A stretch of DNA of 57,665 bases, taken from NCBI GenBank assembly GCA_019661865.1, contig JAIFWJ010000004.1:1-57665 (forward strand). The letters run 5' to 3'. Below the pieces are notes generated by a model. The model was not told where the DNA came from. It saw only the letters and a list, made by a program, of their open reading frames with translations, and searched no databases. How positions within the stretch are numbered: position 1 is the first letter of the stretch; each line of letters opens with the position of its first letter. This document shows, one piece after another, positions 1,457 to 57,665 of this stretch. The translations under genes were made by a program, and so were the position numbers. Source of the DNA: Candidatus Parcubacteria bacterium. GTDB taxonomy: Bacteria > Patescibacteriota > Minisyncoccia > Phycocordibacterales > Zambryskibacteraceae.

Positions 1457-1457
1457 A

Positions 1458-10287: not shown

Positions 10288-10547
10288 TCATAAAATTATA
10301 AAAGTAGTAACTAATCAAAAACAGCCAAGAATATGGATTTTATGTGGATAGTTAAAAATCAATTTTCAAAGATATTTTGACTTAAATTTCATTTTTATTG
10401 AAAATGGCTACAAGGACTTAGGGCATTTCAACAGGCTGAAAGATGAGCTACCCAAGATATAGTTATTAACATCTGGAGACCTTGATAAAAAGGCTCAACT
10501 TTATATCATAGTGTAGTAAGGTTTATAATTCTTTCAGCCTTAAAACC

Positions 10548-10787: not shown

Positions 10788-10790
10788 ATT

Positions 10791-26591: not shown

Positions 26592-28413
26592 ATAGATTTA
26601 TGCCTTCATTTGAGTATACAAGATTTGCGAAAGATAATTTCGACAAAAGGTTTGGATCTACATCCTTATCTACCACTATATAGTCTATTTTGTATTTCTT
26701 GAGTTCAGTATAGAGATCTGCTTTATAGAATTCTTTGTATTCTTGGGCCAATTCTTTATTAAGATTGTTGAAATGCTCATCAATTGCCTCCCTATCACTT
26801 ATAGAAGCAAGCCAGGAATTATTTGTATGTCTAAATATTTCCTTCCAATCCTGGAAGAAATTAGCTTGAACTTCCAGTGGATGACTGGACAGATACTGAT
26901 CGATTCCACTCGGCTTAATCCCGTCGACCCGTAGATGGATAAATAAGTTATGTTTAATTCTATCCTGAGGAATGCCTACAAACACATACGTGGTGTAATA
27001 AGTATTACAACTTGTAAATGCAGGGATATAGGCTGCCAGACTTTCCGTCTCTTCCTCGGCAAGAACCACACAATCTTCTCTAGCATAAGAGTTCAAATAA
27101 TTGAAGAGTCCTTCATAACGCTGTCTAGATCTTAGATCATTAAGAACATATGAATAGGAGGTAAGTACCCTAATATTAAATACAAATGCTAAACCTATAC
27201 AAAATACAGCAATAGAAACAAATAAAATTTTAAATTTATTAATATTATTAATAAATGCTAAGCAAACAGAAAGTACAATAAAACATAGTGGGATGATGTA
27301 TTGAACAAAGTGTTGCGGCCAGATGTTTCTGCCAGTGACAACCTGCTCGTTGGTGACTATAAGGCTCGCAAGCATTAATACCAGAACGAACCTTTCAGTA
27401 AAACCCATAGAATAATTCTCTTTCCTTCTCCACCACAAGAGCCCAAGCAATATTAAGGAACTCACTATTAGAAATTTATTAAGTAATAAATGATGTGTAA
27501 GGATTAGCCCATTTTTCAAAGCAGAGCCAGTTAAAATCAAGTGTGAAAAAAGAAACGGATAAACTTGGTAAAAAATAATGAGCCCTGATATAAGTAATGT
27601 TCCAAGAAAGTTTTTAGCTTCTAAGCGACGCCTTTCCATAAGACACAGAATTAATAGGAGAACTGAAACTACCAGGCCCAAAGTCAGAGAAAAAATATAT
27701 CCCGTCATGAGTCCGAGAAGGATACCCGCCAGGATAAAAATCCTTTTTCTTCCTATATAAACAAGCCAAGCGCAAATGAGAAAAGCGAAGAGATACAGAG
27801 CACCTGTTATAGGATTAACCAAACGCGTCCAAAGAGAAAGATAGAGAGACTGAGGTCCATGGGCAAGGATCTCTAAAACGCTCTTAAATTGTAACAAGTC
27901 GTACCCTAAAACTGACAAAACAGCTGCGAGCGAAGCATAAAGCTTAGGCCGCTCAACCCTTCCGCGAAGTAGAAGATAAGTAAGAGAATATATGAGCAAA
28001 AAAAGAATAAACGGCAAAATGAATTTACTCAACTCATCTACTAAAGGCAGTGGTATACCCAGAAGCGCTGGCAGAGCATATATGTATTCACCTGTTGGGG
28101 CTAGAGGGGTAGGAGTATTTTTGTACTCATATATCATAGGAGATCCAAGGGTTCTGTGACCATCCAAGATCTCATGAATTCTAGCCATGTATGTACTCTC
28201 ATAATCTTGGTACATAAATGGCACACCTTTGTATAAAACTCCCAAGTCCCTTATGGAAAGAAATGTTGGAAGAGCAAGCAGCACAGCCGCCACGACTCCA
28301 AGGATGAGGGCTCCATTATGGTGCTTAATTCTTTCTAAGTTATTTTTTACGAACGATGACATAAAGAATGGCAGATAGATGTATAGAGAAAGGCAGTCTT
28401 GACCCAATAACAT
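26578..28413 (-). CDS. Large polytopic membrane protein (possible YfhO-like GT-C), function unknown
   Basis: 611 aa with more than 10 TM helices followed by a ~200-aa soluble C-terminal domain. The true start may be the internal Met at 28362. Confidence 0.65.
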   Translation of the reverse strand: MLLGQDCLSLYIYLPFFMSSFVKNNLERIKHHNGALILGVVAAVLLALPTFLSIRDLGVLYKGVPFMYQDYESTYMARIHEILDGHRTLGSPMIYEYKNTPTPLAPTGEYIYALPALLGIPLPLVDELSKFILPFILFLLIYSLTYLLLRGRVERPKLYASLAAVLSVLGYDLLQFKSVLEILAHGPQSLYLSLWTRLVNPITGALYLFAFLICAWLVYIGRKRIFILAGILLGLMTGYIFSLTLGLVVSVLLLILCLMERRRLEAKNFLGTLLISGLIIFYQVYPFLFSHLILTGSALKNGLILTHHLLLNKFLIVSSLILLGLLWWRRKENYSMGFTERFVLVLMLASLIVTNEQVVTGRNIWPQHFVQYIIPLCFIVLSVCLAFINNINKFKILFVSIAVFCIGLAFVFNIRVLTSYSYVLNDLRSRQRYEGLFNYLNSYAREDCVVLAEEETESLAAYIPAFTSCNTYYTTYVFVGIPQDRIKHNLFIHLRVDGIKPSGIDQYLSSHPLEVQANFFQDWKEIFRHTNNSWLASISDREAIDEHFNNLNKELAQEYKEFYKADLYTELKKYKIDYIVVDKDVDPNLLSKLSFANLVYSNEGINLYEVK

Positions 28414-30419: not shown

Positions 30420-30446
30420 TATAAAAAGTCCCCCGTTAGGGAGACT
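30420..30446 (-). terminator. Rho-independent terminator overlapping the stop codon of the 30436..31317 gene
   Basis: The minus RNA reads AGUCUCCC-UAAC-GGGGGACU followed by UUUUAU. Confidence 0.55.
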
Positions 30447-31317
30447 GGAACAGTCTGCGGATCCCTTCTTCGAGATCCACTTTCGGTTCAAATTGTAGAA
30501 GCTTTTTCATCTTTTCAGTAGAGCCAACGTACCGCATTTGCTCGTCCTTTCTGTACGCCACTCTGCCGAGCTCCGCAAATCCCTTCCTGCCAGAGACATC
30601 CTCCACCAACCTCACTACTTCCTTTACTTTAACCTCTTGGCCAGAGCAGACATTTATGATCTGTCCCCGGCAAGTGGCTATCTTCTTAGCGGCAAGCACC
30701 AGGGCCTCCACTGCATCATCGATGTAGATGAAGTCTCTGGTCTGCTCACCAGGAGGAAGAGAGATTGGCATGTTAGTCTTTAAGGCCGAGAAGAGGGCTC
30801 CCAGGAGAGTGTCCTTTCTCTGACCTTTACCGTAGACCACGGAGAAACGCAACACCGTAGCTGGCCACATGGAGCCAAAGTCTATGATGTGGCTGGTAGC
30901 CCAGGACTTGGTAAGGCCGTACAGGCTTACAGGATCAATAGGTCTCGCTTCTTCATAGGGTACTCTTGCCCTTCCGTATTCAGAGAAGGACCCAGCTGCC
31001 ACCAAGGCCTGGGCTCTTACCTCAAGCGCTGCCGAGATAATATTCATGGCCCCAAAAAGATTTGGGTCCTCTGTTTCTCTTCGAACTTGGCTTTTCTCTC
31101 TTTCTAAATCGGCAGCTAAGTGGAAGATCCACTCAGGTCTCACCTCATTTACAACTTGGAGCAATCTTTTTCTGTCGGTAACATCTCCCTTGTGGAAGTT
31201 TCCTGGACCGTGGCCCGGATGCCTTGAGAATAAGTGCACCTCATGTCCGTCGACGCATAATCTCCTGGCCAGGTATGTGCCCAGAAATCCTGTACCGCCG
31301 GTGATAAAGACCCTCAT
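30436..31317 (-). CDS. NAD-dependent sugar epimerase/dehydratase (extended SDR)
   Basis: MRVFITGGTGFLGTYLARRL and the YGLTK catalytic motif. Confidence 0.85.
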   Translation of the reverse strand: MRVFITGGTGFLGTYLARRLCVDGHEVHLFSRHPGHGPGNFHKGDVTDRKRLLQVVNEVRPEWIFHLAADLEREKSQVRRETEDPNLFGAMNIISAALEVRAQALVAAGSFSEYGRARVPYEEARPIDPVSLYGLTKSWATSHIIDFGSMWPATVLRFSVVYGKGQRKDTLLGALFSALKTNMPISLPPGEQTRDFIYIDDAVEALVLAAKKIATCRGQIINVCSGQEVKVKEVVRLVEDVSGRKGFAELGRVAYRKDEQMRYVGSTEKMKKLLQFEPKVDLEEGIRRLFQSP

Positions 31318-31428: not shown

Positions 31429-32172
31429 ATGAAAGGTGTCATACTTGCAGGCGGGAAAGGAACTCGTCTATATCCATTAACCCGGGTTACTAATAAACAT
31501 CTCTTGCCGGTTTATGATAAGCCCATTATTTACTACAGTATTGAGAAGTTGGTCAGTGCAGGTATAGACCGCATTATGATTGTCACTGCTCCAGAGCATT
31601 TAGACAATTATGTGCAGCTTCTAGGATCTGGAGAAAACTTTATTTCTCCTGATACTAACAAGCAGATCCAGATAGTTTATGGTATTCAAAACGAGGCGTC
31701 GGGTATAGCTTATGGTCTTTATATAGCCAGAGAGTACGTCGGGCATGATAATTGTGTTCTCTATCTGGGTGACAACATCATCGAAGATAATTTAACTGAA
31801 CACATTAGGAATTTCAGGCACGGAGCTACAGTATTTCTAAAAAAAGTCCCCGACCCAGAAAGATTCGGTGTGGCAACTATAGATAAAAATAATTCTGTTA
31901 AAGAAATCATCGAGAAGCCGAAAAATCCGAAGAGTGACTTAGCAGTCGTCGGCGTATACCTCTATGACAATACAGTATTCGAAAAGATGGTCGGCCAGCC
32001 TGCTTCCAAACGTGGAGAGAAAGAGATCACATATATAAATAATAAATACATTAAGGAAGGAGGCCTGCATGCAGTAACTCTAGAGAAAGAATGGTTCGAC
32101 ATAGGCACCTTCGATAGTCTTGCCGCAGCGACAAACTTTATGATGGACAAATTCAAAAATGAAAAAAAGTAA
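31429..32172 (+). CDS. rmlA: Sugar-1-phosphate nucleotidylyltransferase (glucose-1-phosphate thymidylyltransferase-like, short form)
   Basis: MKGVILAGGKGTRLYPLTRVTNKHLLPVYDKPIIYY is the RmlA/RfbA signature. Confidence 0.85.
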   Translation: MKGVILAGGKGTRLYPLTRVTNKHLLPVYDKPIIYYSIEKLVSAGIDRIMIVTAPEHLDNYVQLLGSGENFISPDTNKQIQIVYGIQNEASGIAYGLYIAREYVGHDNCVLYLGDNIIEDNLTEHIRNFRHGATVFLKKVPDPERFGVATIDKNNSVKEIIEKPKNPKSDLAVVGVYLYDNTVFEKMVGQPASKRGEKEITYINNKYIKEGGLHAVTLEKEWFDIGTFDSLAAATNFMMDKFKNEKK

Positions 32173-33124
32173 AGTTTCTAAAAAGACAATCCTTGTCACC
32201 GGAGTAGCAGGATTTATGGGCAGTGATTTTATAAATTACGCAGTCATAAAATATCCAAGATACAATTTCGTAGGGATAGACTCTCTAACTGGAGTGTCTG
32301 ATAAAAATAATATAGAAGTACGTGATAAGAATAATTTTGTGTTCGTACGTGTAGATATCAGAGATCGCACAGAACTCCAAAAGATTTTCCATGAATATAA
32401 ACCTACAGATGTTATCCACTTCGCGGCGGAAACTCATGTCGACTTAAGTATTAAAAATCCAATTATATTCTCCGAGACTAATGTAAACGGGACAAATAAC
32501 CTCCTATACCTCAGCAAAATGTATAAGATTAGTCGCTTTCACTTTATATCAACCGATGAGGTCTATGGATCTCTTAAACTTGGTGATAAATCCTGGACTG
32601 AAACATCCCCCACATCTCCCAATAATCCTTACAGTGCTTCTAAAGCTGCAGCAGAATTATTTGCTCTTTCATATCACAAGACCTTTGGCATGGATATTGT
32701 CATAACCAGAAGTTCCAACAACTTCGGTCCAAGACAAGACAGAACTAAGATGATTCCACTTTTTATTTCAAAACTTTTAAAGAAAGAAAAAATCCCTCTT
32801 TATGGAAAAGGTTTGCAGATGCGTGATTGGTTATATGTGAGAGATCATTCCATAGCTGTCGATCATGTATTCCACAAGGGTAAACAAGGAGAAATATATA
32901 ATGTCACCGGAGGAAACGAAATGAGAAATATCGATCTAGTTAAAAAACTCCTTAAATTATTTGGACTCAACAGTAAGTACATTGGGCATGTTAAGGACAG
33001 ACTTGGACACGACTTCCGTTACTCTTTGGATGGGAGTAAACTCCATAAACTGGGCTGGTCTCCTGGCACATCTTTCAGAGAAGGACTGGAAAAAACTCTA
33101 AGTTTTTATCGTAGGAATCGGTAA
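32159..33124 (+). CDS. rmlB: dTDP-glucose 4,6-dehydratase
   Basis: ILVTGVAGFMGSDF, STDEVYGS and YSASKAAAE motifs. It overlaps rmlA by 14 nt. Confidence 0.9.
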   Translation: MKKSKVSKKTILVTGVAGFMGSDFINYAVIKYPRYNFVGIDSLTGVSDKNNIEVRDKNNFVFVRVDIRDRTELQKIFHEYKPTDVIHFAAETHVDLSIKNPIIFSETNVNGTNNLLYLSKMYKISRFHFISTDEVYGSLKLGDKSWTETSPTSPNNPYSASKAAAELFALSYHKTFGMDIVITRSSNNFGPRQDRTKMIPLFISKLLKKEKIPLYGKGLQMRDWLYVRDHSIAVDHVFHKGKQGEIYNVTGGNEMRNIDLVKKLLKLFGLNSKYIGHVKDRLGHDFRYSLDGSKLHKLGWSPGTSFREGLEKTLSFYRRNR

Positions 33125-33825
33125 TTCCAAAGATTTTTCAAGAATTCTAGTATCGAAGCAGCGTTTACAAATGAAGTTCTTCTGCTGTTTTTCATAAAAA
33201 CTGTTGGTATTTGAGCAATTTTAAATTTATTCTCGGTTGCTTGAATTATTATTTCTGGATCGATAAACCAGTCGTCGGACTTAAGATCGAGCTTGTTTAA
33301 CGCCTCAAGAGTAAAGATCTTAGGCTTAGAATTAGCATCAAAAACCTTAACCTGTGGAAAAAGGATTCTGAGAAGGATGTTATAAACTTTAGATATAAAA
33401 GTTCTTTTTAAAGGATCATGCCGCTTTGTTCTATAAGTAAGAGCCATATCAGAACCAGTATTGTGGAGCTCTCTATATACTCTTACTACGTCCTCGGCCG
33501 GCATTTGTCCATCACCATCAATATAAGCCACTGTTTTACCTTGAGCGAGAGTGAGCCCTGCTCTAACATCCCAACCGTACATACCTTCTTTAGGCTTGGA
33601 AATTATTTTCAGACGAGGATCGTGTATGGATAACGACTTTGCCACACGTGGAGTATCATCTTGAACACCTGGTTTGTAATTAGCCACAAGGATAATCTCG
33701 AAATTTAAATCATTTTCTTCTAGAGAACTCTTCATTTGAGAAACAAAGTCTTCTATAGACCTACCATCTCTGTAGCAGAGGATGACGACAGATATATCAG
33801 GAATGTTTGAGGTTTCCTTTTTCAA
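33106..33825 (-). CDS. GT2 polyprenol-phosphate glycosyltransferase (GtrB/DPM1-like)
   Basis: ISVVILCYRDGRSI..YIDGDGQMP (DxD) are typical of GT2 dolichol/undecaprenol-phosphate sugar synthases. Confidence 0.8.
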   Translation of the reverse strand: MKKETSNIPDISVVILCYRDGRSIEDFVSQMKSSLEENDLNFEIILVANYKPGVQDDTPRVAKSLSIHDPRLKIISKPKEGMYGWDVRAGLTLAQGKTVAYIDGDGQMPAEDVVRVYRELHNTGSDMALTYRTKRHDPLKRTFISKVYNILLRILFPQVKVFDANSKPKIFTLEALNKLDLKSDDWFIDPEIIIQATENKFKIAQIPTVFMKNSRRTSFVNAASILEFLKNLWNYRFLR

Positions 33826-35257
33826 AATATTCTTTTTCGTTACCTACTTCTTCTATATCATATTTCTTCCCGTCGATAATACTCTTGGCAGCGAGCATAC
33901 CCATTTCCAAAGAGTGATCTTGATTATTGTATCTAAACCTTCCTGGACGGCCAATGTAAAACAAATTATCGAACTTATCTAACGCCATTTTAACTTTGTC
34001 TAAGTAAGTTTTGTAATTTATATCATAGAGAGGATAATTATTTAAATTTCTAATATGATAGACCTCTCTAACTTCTGAAGGCTTGAAGAAACCCAATTTA
34101 TCGAAGTACGGTAAGGAAAGCTTGGTCAGTTCTTCTTTATTCATATTCCAGATCGCATCATCTTCCGAACAGAAAAACTCCACAAAGATAGAGGTCTTCC
34201 CCTTAGGAGACATTTCTTGACTGAAATTTCTCATCTCGCTAATACGGGCAAATGGGATGTCCTTGTCTGGTATATATATCCATTGGTCCCGGGTTATCGA
34301 CTCTTTATTCAGTGTGATAAACAGAAATACCTGACTCCTATGTTTCAGTTTATCATTAGCGTCAAGAACTTCTTTAGAAAGTGGAGGCTCCACAAGATGG
34401 ACAAACTCTGTAAGTGGTATTGACTCTACTAAGTACTTGAATACCACTTCCGCTTCACCTTCAGGCGTTTGAATTATGACTTTATTTATATGATTACCAG
34501 AATGCAAGATCTTAACCGGGTATGAGTTAAGAAGAATCTGGTGACCGGACTCCTCTACACGCCTGGCAATCGTGTCATATATAAGTCCGGTTCCCTTGCT
34601 AGGATAAAAGAAGGTGTCTATCAAGGTCTTCGGTTTATTTTTAAAATTTATTCCAAGAGCTTTCGTCACGGCATCCTTTAAGAGGCTGGTGATACTTAGA
34701 CCTTTGATTCTTTGGCCAGCAAAGTCCTCATGCAGATCTTCCGAAGGGATTCCCCAGATCTTCTCCGCATAATGAATCATATTAAATTCTCCCAGTCCCT
34801 TACCGAAGTGCTTATAAACATAATCCTTAAAATTTCTAACCGGACGTTTGAAAATAGAATATTTTATTCTGGCCCAAACATACTGTACCCCCATGATACT
34901 TGCCCTAAAAAACCCAATATTCCTAAGGGCTTGTGGAGCATTTATCGGATAGTCGTAATACTTGCCTTTAATGAGTTGGCGAGAATGCCTTTCCACTGTT
35001 ATCCAATCTTCATCTATAAGTTCTTCTATAAAATTATAGAGATACTGGTTTTTAGAGTAGAAGCGGTGTGGTCCATTATCGGCCCGAAATACCAGACCAT
35101 CTTTTTCTTTAAAAATATATGTCTTAGAGAGTCCTCCAACTTGAGAATCCTTCTCGACCAGAAGAAAGTCCTTACCAGCCTTAAGGAGTTCCATGGCTGT
35201 GGCCATACCCGCTGGGCCTGCTCCTATTATTAGAGTCTCTGTCTTAATACTTTTCAT
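33797..35257 (-). CDS. FAD-dependent oxidoreductase, UDP-galactopyranose-mutase-like
   Basis: IIGAGPAGMATAMELLKAGKDFLLVEKDSQVGGL is the FAD-binding Rossmann motif. C-terminal GRPGRFRYNNQDHSLEMG resembles the GR.G.Y.Y..MD motif of Glf-type mutases. Confidence 0.75.
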   Translation of the reverse strand: MKSIKTETLIIGAGPAGMATAMELLKAGKDFLLVEKDSQVGGLSKTYIFKEKDGLVFRADNGPHRFYSKNQYLYNFIEELIDEDWITVERHSRQLIKGKYYDYPINAPQALRNIGFFRASIMGVQYVWARIKYSIFKRPVRNFKDYVYKHFGKGLGEFNMIHYAEKIWGIPSEDLHEDFAGQRIKGLSITSLLKDAVTKALGINFKNKPKTLIDTFFYPSKGTGLIYDTIARRVEESGHQILLNSYPVKILHSGNHINKVIIQTPEGEAEVVFKYLVESIPLTEFVHLVEPPLSKEVLDANDKLKHRSQVFLFITLNKESITRDQWIYIPDKDIPFARISEMRNFSQEMSPKGKTSIFVEFFCSEDDAIWNMNKEELTKLSLPYFDKLGFFKPSEVREVYHIRNLNNYPLYDINYKTYLDKVKMALDKFDNLFYIGRPGRFRYNNQDHSLEMGMLAAKSIIDGKKYDIEEVGNEKEYFEKGNLKHS

Positions 35258-35663
35258 CCCGAGTTTTATAAAACACTAAATATTTATATACGAAATAGCT
35301 GTAAATAGCCAAAATCCCATTCACAATAAATTGCGCCCCAAGATATTGAAGATGCATTATATCAACTGACAAGTACATGCCCAAGGTATTCAGACCTAAG
35401 TTAATTAGAGAAACTAAAAGATAAGTTGAGAGTTCTACTGGTATCCTATCTTTTGAGTCTTCCTGAAACGTAAAGTATTTCTGCATAATAAAACTTGCTC
35501 CAAAGGCTACAATAAACCCAACTACAGCTGAGATCAGATACTGTACACGAAGAACATGCACCAAAATATAAAGAACTCCCAAGTCGACTACAGCCGCGGT
35601 TCCACCAGAAATAAGGTAACGGATTATACGACCATATCTTGAATTTAAAATATTTCTAATCAT
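35244..35663 (-). CDS. GtrA-family membrane protein (polyprenol-phosphate-sugar translocation)
   Basis: 139 aa with 4 TM helices. YLISGGTAAVVDLGVLYILV matches the GtrA family. Confidence 0.8.
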   Translation of the reverse strand: MIRNILNSRYGRIIRYLISGGTAAVVDLGVLYILVHVLRVQYLISAVVGFIVAFGASFIMQKYFTFQEDSKDRIPVELSTYLLVSLINLGLNTLGMYLSVDIMHLQYLGAQFIVNGILAIYSYFVYKYLVFYKTRDEKY

Positions 35664-36798
35664 TTTTAACTCTTGAAATAAGTTTCTCTATTACCTCGAT
35701 AACCATTTCCACCGAAACGCTATTTATTTGGCGAAGAGCTTCCTCATAATCAATGAGATGAGCATTCATAGTCATGACTACTGGACCTTTACGGTCCTTA
35801 GGTATTACGACCAAATGGTACTCTCCATCATTTGGAGCTTGTTCATTTTCATCAATATTGCCGGCTATATCAACTGTGGGTATGTCTTGCGCTTCGGCGA
35901 AAAAGACTGGACCGGTATCAACACTCACCATCATATCGAGTCTTGCAACCAGGGCCTTAAGTTCGTCGATGGACAATGTGCTTGTTGTATCTAAGACATT
36001 TTCCTTATGCTGAATAGCTTCTAGCATTTCTTGAGACTCCTTCAGATTATCTTTGCCACCGATAACTATTATCTGAGCATTATGCCTTTCTATAAGATGG
36101 TCAGCCACTTGTGCGAATCTCTCCGGCGGCCACTGCTTTATCTTATTACCCGCACCGGTGACTACGCCGATAATGAAACCCTTGGGATCTTTTAGTTTAT
36201 TTAAAATCTCTTCTGCTTTACGTCGTGCCGACTCTGTATAGTAGACATATTTCTTTGTATTTTTTGTATATATGCCTATTGGCTCAAGAAGTTTTAGATA
36301 TTCTCCGGGTGCATAATATCGCATCCTATGAGTCTTTATATTTACCAGAGGCCTCAATAATTTATATGGTCTTGTCTCATACGGTGACCAACCATTAATG
36401 ACTGTTGGAGCTGCAATCACCTTTACTCCTCCTAGGAAAAGAGCTGCCAGCGCATGAAAGCTTGGAGATGTAACACATCCGAAATCAAATTTATTATTCT
36501 TAAATATTTTTGAAAGTTCTGAAATGTCTTCAGTCCATACAATGTAATCATCAACATCTTTATTACCTTCTAGAACTAGCTTCCCTACAGACTTACCAAC
36601 CACGGTGAGTTTACAGTTTGGATATTGTTTCTTAATTGCTCTAAACATGGGTGTGGTACATACCATATCTCCCAGCTGGGCAGCCTGGATAATTACTATC
36701 TTTTCAGGATTTACAGCTGTACCTCTGGCTGACCCCCTCTTTAGTGCGTAAAAATAGGATTTTATTACGAATAAAAGCTTGGCCCAAGAGTCCTTCAT
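35656..36798 (-). CDS. GT9 glycosyltransferase (ADP-heptose-dependent heptosyltransferase family)
   Basis: IVIIQAAQLGDMVCTTPMFRAIKKQYPNCKLTVVG is the N-terminal GT9 signature. C-terminal VSVDTGPVFFAEA is also present. Confidence 0.82.
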   Translation of the reverse strand: MKDSWAKLLFVIKSYFYALKRGSARGTAVNPEKIVIIQAAQLGDMVCTTPMFRAIKKQYPNCKLTVVGKSVGKLVLEGNKDVDDYIVWTEDISELSKIFKNNKFDFGCVTSPSFHALAALFLGGVKVIAAPTVINGWSPYETRPYKLLRPLVNIKTHRMRYYAPGEYLKLLEPIGIYTKNTKKYVYYTESARRKAEEILNKLKDPKGFIIGVVTGAGNKIKQWPPERFAQVADHLIERHNAQIIVIGGKDNLKESQEMLEAIQHKENVLDTTSTLSIDELKALVARLDMMVSVDTGPVFFAEAQDIPTVDIAGNIDENEQAPNDGEYHLVVIPKDRKGPVVMTMNAHLIDYEEALRQINSVSVEMVIEVIEKLISRVKND

Positions 36799-36804
36799 GC
36801 GTTG

Positions 36805-36813
36805 TAGTATACT
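36805..36813. promoter_or_regulatory. Overlapping face-to-face -10 elements within the 18-nt divergent intergenic spacer
   Basis: The spacer 36799-36816 reads gcgttgtagtatactatc. On the plus strand, TAGTAT (36805-36810) lies 6 nt before the ATG at 36817. On the minus strand, TATACT (complement of 36807-36812) lies 7 nt before the ATG at 36798. Confidence 0.45.
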
Positions 36814-36816
36814 ATC

Positions 36817-37383
36817 ATGGTGATAAAAGGATACTTGGAGAAATCTATTGCCGCTAAGACTTTAGCGTTGGCAGATAAGGCTTTTTTGGAAAATGCGGAG
36901 AGGGCCGGTAAAATACTAAAAGAATCTTTACTCAAGGGTAAGAGAGTTTACATCGCAGGGAATGGCGGCAGTGCTGCTGACTCCCAACACTTCTCAGCCG
37001 AGCTCCTGGGTAAGTACAAGTCTATGAGAAGGGCTTTTCCTGCCGTAGCACTTACTACTGATACTTCCATGCTCACAGCCTGGGCAAATGACACCGCCTT
37101 CGACTTTATATTCTCACGCCAGCTAGAGGGTCTCGGTGAGAAGGGGGATATATTTGTAGCCATCTCCGCCGGAGGGAATTCTCCAAATATTATCGAGGCT
37201 TTAAAGACAGCAAAGTCCAAAGGCATGGTAACAATTTGCCTCCTCGGTAAGGATGGCGGCCAAGCCAAAGGAATGTGTGACATACCTATAGTCGTCCCGT
37301 CTGATGTCACTTCGCACATACAAGAAGTACATATAACTTTAGTTCATTTCTTTTCAGAACTTTTAGAAGACATAAAATCTTGA
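36817..37383 (+). CDS. gmhA: Phosphoheptose (sedoheptulose-7-phosphate) isomerase
   Basis: YIAGNGGSAADSQHFSAELLGKY..ISAGGNSPN..HIQEVH, a SIS-domain GmhA signature. Confidence 0.9.
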   Translation: MVIKGYLEKSIAAKTLALADKAFLENAERAGKILKESLLKGKRVYIAGNGGSAADSQHFSAELLGKYKSMRRAFPAVALTTDTSMLTAWANDTAFDFIFSRQLEGLGEKGDIFVAISAGGNSPNIIEALKTAKSKGMVTICLLGKDGGQAKGMCDIPIVVPSDVTSHIQEVHITLVHFFSELLEDIKS

Positions 37384-38045
37384 TTGAAGCATTGCTTTGG
37401 GATATTGATGGAGTGTTTGTAGACACGGAAGAAATTCACTTCCGTTCTTGGCAATGGTTACTGGAGCAAGAAGGAAAAACTTTAACCCTAGAAGAATATA
37501 TACCTTGTGTAGGTCACACCGGTACAGAAAATATACAAAGGTTAGCATGGCTTAAAGGTATTTCTGGAGATCTAGAGGCTAAGAGACTTCTTCGTAGGCA
37601 AAAGTTTGAAGAGCTCCGTAAAGATGGGGCTCCTATTATAGAAGAAAATATAGAATTCCTTAAAAATTTTAAAAAGGAGTTTCCGAATCTCAAATATACA
37701 ATCGTTTCAGCAGCATCAAAATCAGATATAAAGATAAATCTAGAGACTGCAAAGATTTCAGAATTTTTTCAGGATATTATATCTTTCGAAGAAAATGGTG
37801 GAATGAAAAGAAAACCCTATCCAGACATGTATATCCTGGCTCTAGACCATCTGAATCTTCCAGCTTCTAAGTGTATTGCGTTTGAGGACACAGAAAGCGG
37901 CATAATCTCAGCGGCTGAAGCCGGCATACACACCGTAGCTCTCCCGAACCATCTGACAGAAAGTCAGGATTTCTCCAGGGCCTCTATGGTTATTAGTCTT
38001 GGAGGGATAAAGAGTCCGAAAGGGATTATTGACAACATCAATTAA
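37380..38045 (+). CDS. HAD-IA hydrolase (beta-phosphoglucomutase-like); candidate heptose bisphosphate phosphatase
   Basis: HAD motif I is WDIDGVFVDTE, with FEDTESGIISAAEAG also present. The TTG start overlaps the gmhA stop (TTGA). The GmhB role is inferred from context only. Confidence 0.8.
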   Translation: MIEALLWDIDGVFVDTEEIHFRSWQWLLEQEGKTLTLEEYIPCVGHTGTENIQRLAWLKGISGDLEAKRLLRRQKFEELRKDGAPIIEENIEFLKNFKKEFPNLKYTIVSAASKSDIKINLETAKISEFFQDIISFEENGGMKRKPYPDMYILALDHLNLPASKCIAFEDTESGIISAAEAGIHTVALPNHLTESQDFSRASMVISLGGIKSPKGIIDNIN

Positions 38046-38194
38046 TGAATGTAAGGTCTTTTCAGTCATTGTATAGGACACAACTTTTCGGAGAGTCATA
38101 TGTTCCAAATCCATTTGTGGACGATCGAGGCAATGTATAACTCGATCATTCCTAGAATTCTCGAGGTAGAAGGTAACCGTGCTTTTTCATAAAT

Positions 38195-38224
38195 TCATAA
38201 ATAAAACCACCAGTTAACTGGTGG
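38195..38224 (-). terminator. Rho-independent terminator overlapping the transaldolase stop codon
   Basis: ccaccag-ttaa-ctggtgg (38207-38224). The minus RNA is followed by UUUUAUUUAU. Confidence 0.65.
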
Positions 38225-38930
38225 GTATGGTGTACTCGGCTGCCCGGGCATCATCATAGAACATCTGAACAGTCTCTCTCGAGTATTCAGTCAGATCCTT
38301 GCCCACAAGTGACAGCTTCTTCAGGACGTCGTTTGTGGCTGTGATGATGTGACAGCCGATCGAGTCAGCTTGAATGACATTCAGAAGCTCTCTGGGACTG
38401 GCCCACAGAAGTTCTGCCAAAGGCCTCTCATGGAGAATCCCTAGGGCATCCTGCATCACAGGGACAGGATCCAATCCAGTGTCTGCAATACGACCAGCAA
38501 ACACAGATACGACTGCTCGGGTGTTTGGGTTTAGGTTATCCATCACCCTTAATACCTGTCCGAGAGTGAGGACAGCAGTCACATTCACCTTTACTCCCGC
38601 TCGGGAGAGAATACCCACTGTGAGACCCGAGAAAATTCCTCGAGTGTTCGTTACCGGTATCTTCACATACACATTCTCGCCCCACGAGGCGATCTCCCGT
38701 GCCTGCCTCTCCATTTCCGGGAAGTCGTCAGCGAAAACTTCAAACGAGATCGGCTTACCTCCTACTAGAGCCAGGGCTTCCAGGGCAAAGGCTTTGTAGT
38801 CCTTCACCCCCGCCTTTCTCATCAGAGTCGGGTTCGTGGTGAAGCCCTGAATCCGAGGATCTCGGGCCATTTCCTCAATACCCCTAAGGTCTGCTCCGTC
38901 GGCGAAGAGCTTTATTTTTAAAGTGTGCAT
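38214..38930 (-). CDS. tal: Transaldolase / fructose-6-phosphate aldolase family (short type)
   Basis: IKLFADGADLRGIEEMARDPRIQGFTTNPTLMRKAG..YVKIPVT. A strong SD, AGGAGG, lies 4 nt before the ATG. The gene is visibly GC-rich (33 of 60 G+C in line 38401-38460). Confidence 0.85.
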   Translation of the reverse strand: MHTLKIKLFADGADLRGIEEMARDPRIQGFTTNPTLMRKAGVKDYKAFALEALALVGGKPISFEVFADDFPEMERQAREIASWGENVYVKIPVTNTRGIFSGLTVGILSRAGVKVNVTAVLTLGQVLRVMDNLNPNTRAVVSVFAGRIADTGLDPVPVMQDALGILHERPLAELLWASPRELLNVIQADSIGCHIITATNDVLKKLSLVGKDLTEYSRETVQMFYDDARAAEYTIPTS

Positions 38931-38990
38931 TAATCCTCCTGGTTTTGGATGGAAATTCTATTACACGTATAACAGAGTAGTGACTATAAA

Positions 38991-39947
38991 TCAATCCCGA
39001 AGTAACTTCTTCAAATTAATCATCTTGGGTGGCGTCGTGCCGGGAATAGTTGCTGATAATGCTGCCCAGGCATTAGCAATATAGAGAGTCTCTTCAGGAA
39101 AATCCAAGTCTCCAAGACTAAAGGCAGACATGAAAGCGTCACCTGCCCCGCATGGATCTACCGCCTCAACGTGAATAGCAGGAGTTTTTATAAATTTATT
39201 GTTTATCAAGGCGATAGAGCCATGATCGCCTAATTTAACTATCACATTCTTCAAGTCTAGTTTTTTCTTTATAGCCTCAAGAGAGCCTCCAGCCTTAAGT
39301 GAATTAAATTTTGGATAGACAGCCTTAGCCTCTCCTTCGTTAAGAAACATTGTATGTGCACCTTTATAAAAATGATGATTCGACGGTCTGTGTGAAATCT
39401 GAGTATCAATGTACAAAGGTATATTTTTCTCTTTACTGATTTTTTTCAGATGGTTGATAACTTTCTTTGTCAGTAAACCATGTTGAGGATCCATGGCAAC
39501 AATCGCATCAACTTTATTTATTAATGAATCTATATTTTTTATAACTTTTCTCTCAATAGATGGATCAATATCCCTGTGGTCAACTTTATTAAGATGTAAG
39601 GTCCTCACATCACCTGTAAAGATTCTTCTTTTCACGATAGTTGGTCGAGTCTTGTCAACTATAAAATACTTCTTTAGGCGGGAGTGTGTTAGATTATCAT
39701 AATACCTTGCATCTTCATCATCTCCGACGACTGTAATGAAAAAGACCTTTCCACCGAGTTCAAGTAAATTCTTAGCGATAAGACCATTACCCCCGAAGGA
39801 GGTCTCTACTTTCTTCTCTTCGATTCTAGGAACAGAAGTGCCTAGACCTTGTCCTGCTGCGACACCATAAATATAAACATCCAGTATCGCATCACCCACT
39901 AGAAGTATTCTTTTATCTTTGAAACTTTTAATCAGTTTGTCCTTCAT
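38991..39947 (-). CDS. hldA: PfkB-family sugar kinase, D-glycero-beta-D-manno-heptose-7-phosphate kinase type (HldE domain I equivalent)
   Basis: ILLVGDAILDVYIYG..GGNGLIAKNL..DPCGAGDAFMSAF. It overlaps the adenylyltransferase gene by 4 nt. Confidence 0.8.
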   Translation of the reverse strand: MKDKLIKSFKDKRILLVGDAILDVYIYGVAAGQGLGTSVPRIEEKKVETSFGGNGLIAKNLLELGGKVFFITVVGDDEDARYYDNLTHSRLKKYFIVDKTRPTIVKRRIFTGDVRTLHLNKVDHRDIDPSIERKVIKNIDSLINKVDAIVAMDPQHGLLTKKVINHLKKISKEKNIPLYIDTQISHRPSNHHFYKGAHTMFLNEGEAKAVYPKFNSLKAGGSLEAIKKKLDLKNVIVKLGDHGSIALINNKFIKTPAIHVEAVDPCGAGDAFMSAFSLGDLDFPEETLYIANAWAALSATIPGTTPPKMINLKKLLRD

Positions 39948-40411
39948 CTTTTCTGAATAACTTTCTTTACCGTATTTGTAGTTGAGAAATTTCCGACTTT
40001 GTTGAAACGAATTACTTCTACATGTTTCGGCAGACCGTCAATTCGACGCGTCTCCTCTGGAGTATGCTCACTTTTACTACCCCTGACCACTATGTCAGCT
40101 CTTACCTTGCGGACGACTTTACCCGTACGACTTTCGTTAAAAATTACGACCTTGTCAGCAATACCCAGAGATTCGATAAACAACTTACGATCTTTCTGGT
40201 TATTTATAGGACGATTAGGTCCTTTTAGTCTTCTCACCGCCCTGTCAGAATTTAAACCAACAATTAATTTGTCTCCCAGGGATCGTGCAAATCTTAAAAG
40301 TTTTATATGGCCAGGATGTATGATATCGAAAACCCCGTTTACAAATACAATTTTAGCTTTATTTTTAGCCATAATTCTTTTCACCCTATCATGCACTATG
40401 GGTAAACTCAA
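39944..40411 (-). CDS. hldC: Cytidylyltransferase-fold heptose-1-phosphate adenylyltransferase (HldE domain II equivalent)
   Basis: IVFVNGVFDIIHPGHIKLLRFARSLGDKLIVGLNSDRAVRRLKGPNRPI. The likely true start is Met-14 (ATG at 40370-40372), which removes the overlap with the upstream GT4 gene. Confidence 0.82.
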   Translation of the reverse strand: MSLPIVHDRVKRIMAKNKAKIVFVNGVFDIIHPGHIKLLRFARSLGDKLIVGLNSDRAVRRLKGPNRPINNQKDRKLFIESLGIADKVVIFNESRTGKVVRKVRADIVVRGSKSEHTPEETRRIDGLPKHVEVIRFNKVGNFSTTNTVKKVIQKR

Positions 40412-41504
40412 GAATATTTTGTGCTCGGTTATTCCATGAATACTCCTTTACGATTCGGAGTGCCTCTTTAGCCTTCTTTTCCATATCTTGTGGATCTTTA
40501 AATGCCGATTTAATCTTTTCGGCCAGATTATGAGGATCGTCAGGGTTAAAAAAATATGCTGAAGATTCATCTATGATTTCTCTAAGGGATGGCAAATCCG
40601 AGGCTATTATGGATGTAGAACTGGCCATGTATTCAAAGAGCTTCATTGGAGAAGTGTAGAGCTTGGAGATATCCTCCTCGGCACTGTTTGGAATAGTTAA
40701 AATGTCTGCCGCTCTCATGTATAGAGGCATTTCTTTATGAAGTTTTTTGCCTAAAATTTTAATATTATTTAAGTGTCCAAACCTATTTTTAAAACTTTCT
40801 ATATCATTCTCTGTTCCACCGATAAATACCGCCACTACACCATCTGGGAATTCTCTAGCGGCTTCGGCCAGAATATGAGCTCCTTTCCAAGAATACAAGT
40901 GACCAGTATAAAGAACAATTTTTTCATCTCTCGCTAATCCAAGCTTACGCCTCGCTTCTTCCTTACTCTCACTTATATTGAACTTTTCGAAATCAACTGC
41001 GTCCGGTGCCACGAGAATATTTCTCTCAACTACCCCGAGCCCGACATATAGATTTTTAAGTCCATGACTAATGACGACGATCTTTGCTCGAAGAAAAATT
41101 AGAATCCTTATAAATATATTCCTCTCACCTCTGTGTGCTTCCCATACAGGATTCTTACCAATAAGTTTTAGATAGAATGCTGACATTTCCTCTCGAGTGT
41201 AGTACAACCCTCCATGGAATACTGCATAGAGAGAAACCATCATCGAGAAGGAGAGCGATTCAAGCCAGAATCCTAATTTACCGAACCTCACTGTATCCAA
41301 GCACCAAAGCTTCCTTATTTTAAAGTTTTTCTCAATGTCATAATAAGCAAAAGGATCTTCCTTAATCTCCGTCATCCTATTAGGTACCAAAAGAGTCACA
41401 TCCAAGCCTGTGTCAGCGAAAGCCTTACACATAGAGAAGATCTGTATGCCATGAGCTTTCTCAGTTGGCATTCTAATGTTGGCAATGTAATAAAGCTTTT
41501 TCAT
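40389..41504 (-). CDS. GT4-family glycosyltransferase
   Basis: GT-B fold. C-terminal SPMKLFEYMASSTSIIAS is an E-x7-E-like region. Confidence 0.8.
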   Translation of the reverse strand: MKKLYYIANIRMPTEKAHGIQIFSMCKAFADTGLDVTLLVPNRMTEIKEDPFAYYDIEKNFKIRKLWCLDTVRFGKLGFWLESLSFSMMVSLYAVFHGGLYYTREEMSAFYLKLIGKNPVWEAHRGERNIFIRILIFLRAKIVVISHGLKNLYVGLGVVERNILVAPDAVDFEKFNISESKEEARRKLGLARDEKIVLYTGHLYSWKGAHILAEAAREFPDGVVAVFIGGTENDIESFKNRFGHLNNIKILGKKLHKEMPLYMRAADILTIPNSAEEDISKLYTSPMKLFEYMASSTSIIASDLPSLREIIDESSAYFFNPDDPHNLAEKIKSAFKDPQDMEKKAKEALRIVKEYSWNNRAQNILEFTHSA

Positions 41505-47830: not shown

Positions 47831-48949
47831 TTAGGCCTTAAGAAACGCAGAAATTTCTCCGAGCATTCTCTCTTCTCCGAAGAATTCTAGCTTCTTTTTA
47901 CCGTTTGAAACGAACTTCTCTCTAAGATCTGAGTCAGAAAGTACTGAGATAATTGCCTCCTTTATTGCCTCTCTGTCGTTGTAGCCTAAGAGGATTCCAG
48001 ACTTCTGGTCATCCACCGTCTCGGTATTGCCACCAGCTCGAGTTGTCACAATTGGAGTTTCAAGGGCCATTACCTCAAGAAGCTGGTGAGACAGCCCTTC
48101 ATAAGACGTATTTAGTACGAATAAATCGGAAGCTTTGATTTGTTTAAATAATTCCTCTTGCTTCACTCTGCCAAGAAGTGTTACGTATTTAGAAGTTTTA
48201 GTTTCTTTAACCTTACTTTCAAGGTAGTTCTTGTCTGGTCCATCACCAGCAATGTAAAGATGAGCATCGGGAATCTTCTCAGCAATTTCATGCATAAGAG
48301 AAATAAGAGTATCGAATCCTTTCCAAGGTACTAACCTACCGGCAGAAATTATAATGGTGCCCTTCCAGCCAAGTTCCTTCCGATACTCTTCCTTGGTACC
48401 GTTAATATGCGGAGCATGGAATGCATTATAAATAACTGTTATTTTCTGAGGATTGACTCCCCAATTAGAGATAATCATCTTTAAGTACTTCGACGGTACT
48501 ATGACCTTGTCTGCATGACTAGCTACGAAGAACTGAACTCTCTTCAAGATCCGGACTAGAGGAGGATACTTATTAAACTCAGTTGAGAACTGATCTAGAA
48601 GATCTGTTACTCCTGCTCTCTGACTCCCTTGCTCCCATGCATAGTCTCCGACAATCTTTATATAAAATTTCTTTCGTAAGATTTTGGCTGCAATTAGAGC
48701 TGGCAAACCCACAGACACAGGATCCTGAGCGTATATGATGTCGGCAGTTATCCCAGAGAAAAAAACTTTGAAAAAATAGACCACGTGCCGGATAATTTTC
48801 GGAAATCCTAAGACCCAACCGAAACTCTGAATCTTAATTTCAAATCCTCTTTCTGGAAGCTTCTCCAAAAGTAATTTCGAATATGTAGCTGGTCCTCCAA
48901 CTTGTGGTGGGAAAAGTCCTGTAGCAATAAGTATTCTAATCTTTTTCAT
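47831..48949 (-). CDS. GT4-family glycosyltransferase
   Basis: SYEGLSHQLLEVMALETPIVTT and an N-terminal GGPATY motif. Confidence 0.82.
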   Translation of the reverse strand: MKKIRILIATGLFPPQVGGPATYSKLLLEKLPERGFEIKIQSFGWVLGFPKIIRHVVYFFKVFFSGITADIIYAQDPVSVGLPALIAAKILRKKFYIKIVGDYAWEQGSQRAGVTDLLDQFSTEFNKYPPLVRILKRVQFFVASHADKVIVPSKYLKMIISNWGVNPQKITVIYNAFHAPHINGTKEEYRKELGWKGTIIISAGRLVPWKGFDTLISLMHEIAEKIPDAHLYIAGDGPDKNYLESKVKETKTSKYVTLLGRVKQEELFKQIKASDLFVLNTSYEGLSHQLLEVMALETPIVTTRAGGNTETVDDQKSGILLGYNDREAIKEAIISVLSDSDLREKFVSNGKKKLEFFGEERMLGEISAFLKA

Positions 48950-49893
48950 TTGTGTTTGTGTATTTTTTCTTTATACCACTCGACCTGCTTTTTTAATCCT
49001 TCCTGTAGAGGTACCTTAGGATTGTATCCGAAGAATTTTCTCATTTTAGAGATATTTGCACCTGTCTCGATCTGGTCTCCGGGCCGGCGGGGCATTACAT
49101 TGAACTTAGCCTTACGACCTAATAAGGACTCAATGATCTCGATCCCATCCTTGGTGGTCATAGTCTTATCAGTACCTAGATTAAAAATCTCTCCTACAGC
49201 CTTATCTACATTCTCTGTTACTAAGACACATCCGTCCACTATGTCACTTATAAATGTATAGCTTCTGACATGATGTTCTGATCCTTCATGAAGAGGCATG
49301 GGCTTATCCTCTAAGATAGATTTTATGAGCTTGTGGTAGAGCTTCTCCGGACGCTCTCTGGGTCCGTATACTGAGAAAAACCGAAGTACTATTACTGGCA
49401 AACCTGACTCTCGATAGTAGGACATGGCCAACTGTTCAGAAGCAAGTTTGGTTACTCCATAGTTAGAAGTAGGTTTCGGTTCTGCAGTTTCTTCTTCTGT
49501 GGCACGAGCACCGTAGACAGAAGAGGTGGAGGCATGGATAAAGGCCTTAAGAGTAGGAACTTTCTTGGCTACTTCAAGAAGTCTGTGAGTAGCAATTATG
49601 TTGTCATCAAGATAGGTTTGGAATGGAGTGGTGGCCGAGATCCCAGGTTGTGCAGCACAGTGGAAAATTATATCTACATCTTTCAATAGGCTGTCGAACT
49701 CATCTGTAGTTAGATCGATATAATGCATTTCAACTCCGATCTTCTCTAGATCAGTGGCATTAATCTTTTTAATATTTGGATCGTAGTAAGGTTTAAGTGC
49801 ATCTATACCTACTACGGTGTGTCCAAGTTCTACGAAGCGCTCTGCCAAATGTGACCCTATAGCGCCAGCTGCTCCAGTAACAACTATTTTCAT
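48946..49893 (-). CDS. NAD-dependent nucleotide-sugar epimerase/dehydratase (extended SDR)
   Basis: MKIVVTGAAGAIGSHLAERF and YGVTK. ATGA-type overlaps with both neighbours. Confidence 0.85.
   Translation of the reverse strand: MKIVVTGAAGAIGSHLAERFVELGHTVVGIDALKPYYDPNIKKINATDLEKIGVEMHYIDLTTDEFDSLLKDVDIIFHCAAQPGISATTPFQTYLDDNIIATHRLLEVAKKVPTLKAFIHASTSSVYGARATEEETAEPKPTSNYGVTKLASEQLAMSYYRESGLPVIVLRFFSVYGPRERPEKLYHKLIKSILEDKPMPLHEGSEHHVRSYTFISDIVDGCVLVTENVDKAVGEIFNLGTDKTMTTKDGIEIIESLLGRKAKFNVMPRRPGDQIETGANISKMRKFFGYNPKVPLQEGLKKQVEWYKEKIHKHK

Positions 49894-56947: not shown

Positions 56948-57665
<718 letters not shown>

Follow-up and report, generated by a model that had tools for sequence, protein, structure and literature searches.

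The closest described system to the one considered here is the heptose pathway of the lipopolysaccharide (LPS) inner core, in which GmhA, GmhB, HldD and either HldE or the separate HldA and HldC make the activated sugar and the glycosyltransferase family 9 (GT9) enzymes WaaC, WaaF and WaaQ transfer it. Heptose also occurs outside LPS, both in the S-layer glycan of Aneurinibacillus thermoaerophilus and in Campylobacter capsules, which use a GDP route, and in the actinomycete products septacidin and hygromycin B, which use an ADP route. More broadly, functional nucleoside diphosphate (NDP)-heptose enzymes with uses other than LPS were shown in bacteria, archaea, eukaryotes and viruses by Tang et al. 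(2024), and ADP-heptose biosynthesis has been stated, in one sentence, to be encoded in Paceibacteria (Chiriac et al., 2022), a class of the candidate phyla radiation (CPR). We describe here a set of heptose genes with a GT9 glycosyltransferase in a 57,665-nt stretch of DNA (hereafter ‘the window’, meaning that stretch at its full length) from a Candidatus Parcubacteria bacterium (contig JAIFWJ010000004.1 of assembly GCA_019661865.1, positions 1-57,665, forward strand). An earlier note on this DNA had proposed a complete-looking ADP-heptose pathway at the locus; we find a conserved heptose module which, together with a CPR-specific GT9, probably serves to build a lipid-linked surface glycan.

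Paceibacteria, and the CPR in general, are regarded as monoderm or Gram-positive, and Minisyncoccus archaeiphilus, a cultured species of this class, has been described as Gram-positive. The SecA protein encoded in the window (14956-17427) has its best named matches, at 71-75% identity, in Candidatus Parcubacteria, Minisyncoccia/Minisyncoccota and Zambryskibacteria. The host thus appears to be a member of the Paceibacteria (Parcubacteria, CPR), a placement that the GT9 relatives described below support, and the premise of the earlier note that such a lineage would not be expected to make LPS is sound.

Heptose genes and the GT9 glycosyltransferase

Genes were assigned to families by Pfam and NCBIfam profile searches, comparison with sequences in the Protein Data Bank (PDB), AlphaFold (AF2) models and Foldseek. 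All six open reading frames (ORFs) named in the earlier note are present at the coordinates given there and match the families GT9, GmhA, HAD phosphatase, transaldolase, and HldA- and HldC-type enzymes (Table 1). The GmhA protein scores 180.4 bits on TIGR00441 (cut-off 209.45) and 189 on NF010546 (cut-off 276), and aligns with Campylobacter jejuni GmhA (1tk9) at 172 bits across residues 26-184 of 188 amino acids (aa). The split kinase and nucleotidyltransferase genes, which overlap by 4 bp, best fit rfaE domains I and II, respectively, by wide margins: the kinase scores 158.6 bits on TIGR02198 (cut-off 345) against 62.3 on the ribokinase model, and the nucleotidyltransferase 125.5 bits on TIGR02199 (cut-off 181.5) against 44 on the glycerol-3-phosphate cytidylyltransferase model. 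Neither therefore appears to be a member of the ribokinase or CTP-glycerol families, a possibility the earlier note had raised against itself, though both lie below the NCBIfam equivalog cut-offs. Their best PDB matches are Burkholderia HldA (4e84) and Burkholderia HldC (5x9q, 81 bits), and alignment with Escherichia coli HldE gives 24% identity over 326 aa between the kinase and the N-domain, and 40% between the nucleotidyltransferase and the C-domain (residues 337-475); the nucleotidyltransferase has HPGH and FSTT motifs. Its gene has a TTG start that overlaps the upstream GT4 gene, and an alternative ATG start at 40372. The transaldolase exceeds its equivalog cut-off, and its role is presumably to supply sedoheptulose-7-phosphate.

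The glycosyltransferase likewise matches the GT9 family, to which the earlier note had assigned it, scoring well above the Pfam cut-off (Table 1) and having its nearest structural neighbours among GT9 enzymes. Its AF2 model, built from a 29-sequence alignment, has a predicted local distance difference test (pLDDT) value of 94.4 and an extra N-terminal helix (residues 2-21); Foldseek places it nearest to a Veillonella GT9 (3tov, E 3.5e-20), E. coli WaaF (2e-17) and E. coli WaaC (~1e-13). Chloroplast NDH-PSI supercomplex subunits (9grx, 7f9o, 7wff) also appear among the nearest Foldseek neighbours, between WaaF and WaaC. The residues G43-D44, K221-Q-W223 and D294-T295-G296 are invariant across 29 CPR homologs and align with D13, K192/W194 and D261-T262-G263 of WaaC, where D13 on the one hand and the K192-x-W194 and D261-T/S-G motifs on the other are the catalytic aspartate and the ADP-heptose-binding motifs, respectively. 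ADP-heptose is the predicted donor, judging by gene context, with GT9 adjoining GmhA, HldA and HldC genes here and true HldD genes in six other loci. The enzyme nevertheless misses the equivalog cut-offs of WaaC, WaaF and WaaQ (score/cut-off: TIGR02195, 69.9/134.6; TIGR02193, 66.2/185.3; TIGR02201, 59.7/170.2), and CPR genomes encode hundreds of homologs at 45-55% identity. It belongs to a CPR-specific clade, and although it is a GT9 enzyme it is orthologous to none of those that build the LPS core.

Conservation of the module across the CPR

We scanned GTDB species representatives (one genome per species) with an alignment of GT9 homologs, which returned 153 relatives and was used in place of an earlier scan of the same representatives with the kinase alone, which had found no relative. 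The best 80 of the 153 loci are titled as Patescibacteria/CPR taxa or unclassified ‘bacterium’, with the exception of two (L027, L036) labelled as uncultured Gammaproteobacteria. The related loci (L-numbers) were covered as stretches with flanks of up to 10 kb; the counts of heptose and kds genes given below are for 84 GT9 loci, within about 10 kb of GT9, and those of neighbouring families for 77 CPR loci.

At least one heptose gene lies near GT9 in 18 of the 84 loci, where random placement would give about 3% (a rough estimate for a genome of 0.6-1 Mb). The set of HldA, transaldolase, HldC and GmhA genes recurs in L006, L012, L087, L089, L090 and L092-94, together with GT9 wherever the contig reaches that far. 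Specifically, in the metagenomic contigs L087-L094, whose GmhA is 72-80% identical to that of the window, the gene order is GtrA, GmhA, HldC, transaldolase, HldA, phosphatase and GT9. A 554-aa ORF in L004 (P0003) that might have passed for a GT9 fusion was rejected as an over-called ORF running antisense through GmhA. Comparative genomics is a firmer basis for functional linkage than gene layout alone, and the proposal of the earlier note that these genes form a functional NDP-heptose module with GT9 gains from the recurrence of the module in independent CPR contigs and from the HldD genes found beside the same GT9 clade (see below).

It could be argued that the genes are coincidental neighbours, the transaldolase being a housekeeping enzyme, the kinase and nucleotidyltransferase serving unrelated roles (as a ribokinase, or in FAD or CDP-glycerol synthesis) and the GT9 using another donor; the below-cut-off scores of all pathway matches would fit this, as would the additional matches of the nucleotidyltransferase to ethanolamine-phosphate and glycerol-3-phosphate cytidylyltransferases. 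However, the full-length rfaE-domain models lead by wide margins, the same gene set is found in differently arranged operons of divergent CPR lineages, and true HldD adjoins GT9. Coincidence is already disfavoured by this conserved synteny, and we consider it extremely improbable.

In L001, L006, L012, L032, L082 and L087-L094 the transaldolase gene is found either next to the HldA and HldC genes or between them, and this recurring position marks it as a core member of the operon. A transaldolase so placed, in several lineages between the genes for the kinase and the nucleotidyltransferase, is not usual in heptose clusters and might instead indicate a pathway to an octose or other higher sugar, in which an LmbR-like transaldolase moves a three-carbon unit onto ribose-5-phosphate or arabinose-5-phosphate to give octulose-8-phosphate, from which the GmhA-like isomerase, kinase, phosphatase and nucleotidyltransferase would make an NDP-octose. 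The LmbR/LmbN precedent does pair a transaldolase with a GmhA-like isomerase, and the window holds a KpsF gene (see below). In the lincomycin route, though, the kinase and nucleotidyltransferase are of GHMP/GDP type, unlike the HldA- and HldC-type enzymes found here; further, the window GmhA aligns at 172 bits with a bona fide GmhA, true HldD and GT9 co-occur with the clade, and the transaldolase is above the cut-off of an ordinary transaldolase equivalog. An octose product therefore seems very unlikely to us.

The phosphatase step and the heptose isomer

The earlier note had the HAD phosphatase translationally coupled to GmhA, and it is: the two genes share 4 bp (TTGA) at the GmhA stop. GmhB, a HAD-IIIA enzyme, was rejected as an assignment since neither the GmhB model nor a GmhB structure was matched; the best profile models are of HAD-IA/beta-phosphoglucomutase type (TIGR02009, TIGR01509), and among PDB entries it is closest to TM1254, the phosphatase domain of MtlD, CbbY (a bisphosphate phosphatase) and beta-phosphoglucomutase. 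In related CPR contigs some HAD phosphatase always lies close to the module. L001, L004 and L032 have orthologs of this HAD-IA protein among their heptose genes, and in the first two these adjoin GmhA as in the window. In other clusters a Cof-type HAD-IIB protein (Pfam Hydrolase_3, 140 bits) lies between HldA and GT9 (L006, L012, L087, L089 at 10365-11123 on the plus strand, L090 and L092-L094). The presence of two unrelated HAD subfamilies, both distinct from GmhB, in the same kind of cluster is a good indication that the pathway requires a bisphosphate phosphatase, in line with the canonical kinase-phosphatase-nucleotidyltransferase route. We infer that the HAD-IA protein is a heptose-1,7-bisphosphate 7-phosphatase in place of GmhB, and the two subfamilies appear to be independent, non-orthologous replacements of that enzyme.

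Two short-chain dehydrogenase/reductases (SDRs), at 30436-31317 and 48946-49893, had been put forward as possible HldD epimerases, an idea that is not borne out: they score only 57 and 117 bits on TIGR02197 (cut-off 274.6), and both were rejected. The second scores lower on this model than on the dTDP-glucose dehydratase and GalE models, shares 27% identity with E. coli HldD, and carries E or D in the column of K178, the second catalytic base of HldD. The first more likely forms, with RmlA and RmlB, a dTDP-6-deoxyhexose branch of the surrounding glycan cluster. True HldD genes do lie directly beside the same GT9 clade in six loci (L011, L027, L029, L052, L055, L075; genes flanking GT9 at ~10001-11100), their products being 36-45% identical to E. 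coli HldD and, in L052 and L075, scoring 391-395 bits on TIGR02197. As the window has no HldD ortholog, its product is probably the D,D-isomer (D-glycero-D-manno), and different Paceibacteria probably use either L,D- or D,D-heptose.

The activities, nucleotide, anomer, epimer and acceptor in the scheme that follows are those suggested by the gene identities, operon layout, conservation across the CPR and retained GT9 donor-site residues. The operon-encoded transaldolase would yield sedoheptulose-7-phosphate, which GmhA would isomerize to heptose-7-phosphate; the HldA-type PfkB kinase would then form heptose-1,7-bisphosphate, the GmhA-coupled HAD-IA phosphatase would remove the 7-phosphate as a non-orthologous stand-in for GmhB, and the HldC-type enzyme would produce ADP-heptose, or possibly another NDP-heptose.

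The surrounding glycan cluster and the acceptor

Between 51077 and 38214 the minus-strand genes either overlap or lie a short distance apart. In this operon the final GT4 gene (40389-41504) is followed by HldC, HldA and the transaldolase, after which a terminator-like hairpin marks the end (Table 1). GmhA and the HAD phosphatase make up a convergent bicistron, whereas GT9, GtrA, a FAD oxidoreductase and GT2 make up a divergent operon with its start 18 bp away from GmhA. Promoter-like sites are no commoner here than in shuffled sequence, and no promoters were called. Upstream, the first 11 bp of the glycan operon are shared with the gene of a 582-aa HerA/TraG/VirD4-like P-loop ATPase (51067-52815, minus strand), which matches DUF87 and type IV secretion system coupling-protein families weakly.

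A cluster of about 33 kb (17.8-51 kb) surrounds the heptose genes and also holds a TPR-repeat protein of the Wzy_C family, a Wzx flippase, five GT4 glycosyltransferases, seven or eight methyltransferases, an AsnB-like amidotransferase, RmlA, RmlB, a GT-C glycosyltransferase (PMT_2) and a module of GtrA, GT2 and FAD oxidoreductase (33106-35663). That module resembles the polyprenyl-phosphate-sugar type, and the cluster as a whole bears what look like the hallmarks of a Wzx/Wzy-type surface glycan pathway. Much of this setting is shared by relatives. The commonest neighbours of GT9 among the 77 CPR loci are the GT4 of 40389-41504 (36 loci), the AsnB-like protein (29), a 611-aa membrane protein (27) and a membrane-anchored GT2 (27), along with methyltransferases and Wzx; Wzy_C and Wzx homologs are near GT9 in 10-19 of the 77, and a TagF-like glycerophosphotransferase is present in some related loci. 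The pairing of PMT_2 with the 611-aa protein is conserved in L001 and L004, the order GtrA, FAD oxidoreductase, GT2 is found again in L004, and GtrA adjoins GmhA in L087-L094. The FAD oxidoreductase (in L004, 2434-3918), whose N-terminus resembles UDP-galactopyranose mutase, is kept between GtrA and GT2 and downstream of GT9 in both; it may modify a nucleotide-linked or polyprenyl-linked sugar.

Because the heptose genes sit within this Wzx/Wzy_C/GT4/methyltransferase cluster, a lipid-linked surface glycan, and not LPS, is the most likely acceptor. At the cytoplasmic face, the CPR-specific GT9 would add heptose to a lipid-linked oligosaccharide made by the co-transcribed GT4 enzymes and decorated by the methyltransferases and the amidotransferase. 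Wzx would export the product, and the Wzy_C/TPR protein would pass it to its final acceptor, either a wall polymer or, en bloc, a protein; O-glycosylation of proteins by the latter route is a possible part of this explanation.

Several observations weigh against a surface-glycan role as set out here. First, the heptose-pathway matches are all under NCBIfam equivalog cut-offs (GmhA 180 against 209, HldA 159 against 345, HldC 125 against 181, GT9 70 against at least 135), which means that exact substrate specificity is not guaranteed, and the GT9 family also includes non-heptosyl transferases. Second, the HldC-type enzyme may use another nucleotide: its C-terminal motif is KVGNFSTT where E. coli has FEDGCSTT, with K at the (F/L) motif position; the STTR5 arginine rule for CDP/UDP-heptose promiscuity is ambiguously defined. 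Third, some 66 of the 84 loci have no heptose gene within 10 kb of GT9, and an initiating phosphoglycosyltransferase of WbaP or WecA type was not recognized in the window.

The earlier note had suggested as possible acceptors the serine- and threonine-rich (S/T-rich) proteins at 1-9457, and a direct route to them can be imagined, with GT9 acting as AAH and TibC do to O-heptosylate secreted proteins. The candidates are a 2106-aa protein with a signal peptide and 31% Ser+Thr and its 560-aa neighbour with a signal peptide and an fn3 domain, both of which may be adhesins or host-attachment fibres of an episymbiont. Protein glycosylation dependent on ADP-heptose is, moreover, a known mechanism. Yet the GT9 fold match to TibC is weak (E ~1e-8, TM-score ~0.5, no closer than to generic GT-B enzymes) beside those to 3tov and WaaF (E 1e-20 and 1e-17), and TibC was not reached from GT9 by sequence or profile searches. 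Nor is there linkage, as GatB, Obg, MYG1 and SecA lie between the S/T-rich genes and the cluster and neither protein is among the 30 commonest GT9-neighbour families of the 77 loci; a cytoplasmic GT9 would also have to act before Sec export. This acceptor is not supported, and we think direct protein heptosylation improbable. The 2106-aa protein, for its part, resembles a tail fibre.

Kdo-type genes in the window and in related loci

[quoted passage not shown] Classical LPS is thus unlikely, in keeping with the earlier view that the acceptor is something other than an LPS core. That note had also seen neither lipid A nor Kdo transferase genes, which stands for the window; the wider impression that Kdo-type genes are absent does not. 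The window encodes a KpsF/GutQ-family arabinose-5-phosphate isomerase above its subfamily cut-off (Table 1), an enzyme that catalyses the first step of the Kdo pathway. Among related GT9 loci, KdsB is above cut-off in L066, L062 and L027, and KdsC is present in L066, where a DAHPS/KDO8PS-family synthase directly follows GT9, and 12 of the 84 loci have a kds-type gene. Such genes appear to belong to this glycan system, blurring the picture of a lineage with nothing LPS-like.

The KpsF/GutQ gene overlaps the gene for unk489, a CPR-only protein family with a confidently predicted GT-B fold and 52 homologs, none of which has a confident Pfam match. A kds-type gene is found no more than 1.2 kb from unk489 in eight of 14 loci. 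In relatives this family is also seen between or beside KdsB, KdsC and the DAHPS/KDO8PS-like synthase after GT9 (L066, 11139-14982; L027, L036, L062). An attempt to place it in a known Kdo transferase type failed, its top 50 Foldseek matches being to generic GT-B enzymes and none specific to WaaA, KpsC/S or WbbB. We regard unk489 as a candidate transferase for a ulosonic (Kdo-like) acid, in a lineage held to be monoderm.

These genes raise the possibility of a glycan like the LPS inner core with no lipid A, in which CMP-Kdo (or a related 3-deoxy-ulosonic acid) and ADP-heptose are both made, unk489 transfers the ulosonic acid, and GT9 heptosylates Kdo on another lipid or polymer anchor, as a relic of a diderm ancestor. 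To our knowledge the characterized LPS GT9 enzymes all use Kdo-containing acceptors, which fits, as do the isomerase in the window (264 bits), the kds-type genes of related loci and the proximity of these to unk489. Against it, the window has no KdsA, KdsB or KdsC, heptose and kds genes occur together within 10 kb in just three of the 84 loci, the L066 synthase matches DAHP synthase far better than KDO8P synthase (429 against 110 bits), unk489 has no specific likeness to the known transferases, and KpsF homologs are known from Gram-positive bacteria that have no Kdo. We consider such a glycan unlikely. In its fullest form, to which we would likewise give a small chance, monoderm Paceibacteria would have kept LPS inner-core building blocks and repurposed them for a Kdo(-like)-heptose glycan, anchored to something other than lipid A, by means of GT9, unk489, the transaldolase and the HAD-IA and HAD-IIB phosphatases; if true, this glycan would be a diderm ancestor's molecular relic, and a candidate for determining how episymbiont attaches to host.

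Other features of the window

The coordinates of the features discussed are collected in Table 1. The partial 16S rRNA at the end of the window has a 41-nt insertion near model position 1158 and is missing most of ~1205-1290; its 3′ tail, ...GCUGCUCGUGGAGUAAUUCAA, lacks the canonical CCUCC anti-Shine-Dalgarno sequence. The motifs GGAG, GAGG and AGGA occur 5′ of 51 called starts at background frequency.

Table 1. Features of the window, in order of position, with strand and the basis of each assignment.
Feature	Position	Strand	Basis or remark
S/T-rich secreted protein, 2106 aa	1458-7778	-	Signal peptide; 31% Ser+Thr; C-terminal Peptidase_S74 (endosialidase-chaperone)
Secreted fn3 protein, 560 aa	7775-9457	-	Signal peptide, fn3 domain; neighbour of 2106-aa protein
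Wzy_C protein (O-antigen ligase/polymerase/O-oligosaccharyltransferase family) with TPR repeats	17784-19949	-	Profile match
Wzx-type flippase	20002-21267	+	Profile match
unk489, CPR-only, predicted GT-B fold, N-terminal transmembrane helix	21963-23432	-	AF2 pLDDT 93.5
KpsF/GutQ-family arabinose-5-phosphate isomerase	23429-24391	-	TIGR00393 263.6 bits (cut-off 203.7); SIS and CBS domains (Pfam)
PMT_2 (GT-C) glycosyltransferase	25230-26591	-	Pfam
Multi-pass membrane protein, 611 aa, no family assignment	26578-28413	-	Paired with PMT_2
Generic SDR	30436-31317	-	57 bits on HldD model
RmlA	31429-32172	+	224 bits
RmlB	32159-33124	+	363 bits; paired with RmlA
GT2 glycosyltransferase	33106-33825	-	Profile match
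PRK07208-type FAD oxidoreductase	33797-35257	-	Profile match
GtrA-like membrane protein	35244-35663	-	8-bp overlap with GT9 stop
GT9 glycosyltransferase, predicted ADP-heptose-dependent heptosyltransferase	35656-36798	-	PF01075 Glyco_transf_9 64.4 bits (cut-off 22)
GmhA, putative sedoheptulose-7-phosphate isomerase	36817-37383	+	TIGR00441 180 bits; divergent from GT9, 18-bp gap
HAD-IA phosphatase (beta-phosphoglucomutase family)	37380-38045	+	PF13419 90 bits; TIGR02009 87 bits
Terminator-like GC-rich hairpin and T-run	38207-38224	-	Begins in last transaldolase codons, spans stop; consensus match only
Transaldolase, TIGR02134 type	38214-38930	-	322 bits (cut-off 281.95); last gene of minus-strand operon
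HldA-type PfkB kinase	38991-39947	-	TIGR02198 (rfaE domain I) 159 bits, full length
HldC-type putative heptose-1-phosphate nucleotidyl(adenylyl)transferase	39944-40411	-	TIGR02199 (rfaE domain II) 125 bits
Operon in transcription order: GT4 (49890-51077), SDR (48946-49893), three GT4, AsnB-like amidotransferase, three methyltransferases, GT4 (40389-41504)	51077-40389	-	Pfam
Partial 16S rRNA	56948-57665	-	At window end, along with tRNA-Ile

Novelty and significance

How new is this system? Our literature search found nothing on heptose, heptosyltransferases or Kdo in the CPR beyond the statement of Chiriac and colleagues, and no paper treating the GT9 clade of the CPR, the transaldolase within the operon, HAD-IA or HAD-IIB proteins in place of GmhB, or an association with Kdo-type genes. 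The novelty is smaller than the earlier note had assumed, in view of Chiriac et al. (2022) and Tang et al. (2024).

The CPR (Patescibacteria) is a huge, mostly uncultured group whose members live attached to other microbes and whose surface chemistry is little known. A conserved but rewired heptose pathway with its own GT9 clade, set in Wzx/Wzy-type clusters of which some include Kdo-synthesis genes, gives concrete surface glycans to seek in the class Paceibacteria. For enzymology, the use of two HAD subfamilies for GmhB would be a case of non-orthologous replacement, and for evolution the system is a possible trace of the transition from diderm to monoderm cells. NDP-heptoses are also agonists of ALPK1, such that heptose-making CPR could matter where these bacteria meet animals; the named and sampled relatives look mainly environmental (e.g. 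from groundwater), which limits this angle.

Comparison with known heptose systems

The window system has most in common with the LPS inner-core pathway, to which its isomerase, PfkB kinase, nucleotidyltransferase and GT9 are homologous, with the donor-site residues kept and with HldA and HldC split as they are in Burkholderia. It differs in its host, a CPR monoderm in which lipid A and WaaA genes are not seen here; in the apparent replacement of GmhB by HAD-IA in the window and HAD-IIB in sister lineages; in a built-in transaldolase and the lack of HldD in the window; and in a setting of Wzx, Wzy_C, GT4 and methyltransferase genes. Its GT9, unlike those of the inner core, appears to form its own clade, falls under every Waa equivalog cut-off and has the extra N-terminal helix.

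Other NDP-heptose systems likewise start from sedoheptulose-7-phosphate and lie outside LPS, Gram-positive bacteria included. The S-layer and capsule systems follow a GDP route through the alpha-anomer, in which a GHMP kinase and HddC take part, whereas the window enzymes are of the beta, HldA/HldC type, and the septacidin and hygromycin B clusters belong to an antibiotic setting rather than to a cell-surface glycan cluster with GT9. AAH and TibC (the BAHT family) also transfer heptose from ADP-heptose to a non-LPS acceptor, in their case protein serine, and have a GT-B fold; the window GT9 shares with them a distant fold and no sequence match, and autotransporter substrates are not seen in the window. 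Finally, the lincomycin genes LmbR and LmbN show the same clustering of a transaldolase with a GmhA-like isomerase, kinase, phosphatase and nucleotidyltransferase, but there the kinase and nucleotidyltransferase are of other families, the product is a GDP-octose and the cluster makes an antibiotic, whereas the transaldolase of the window is more simply explained as a supplier of sedoheptulose-7-phosphate. Set against these systems, the heptose module of the window is genuine and conserved, a variant on a pathway already described.

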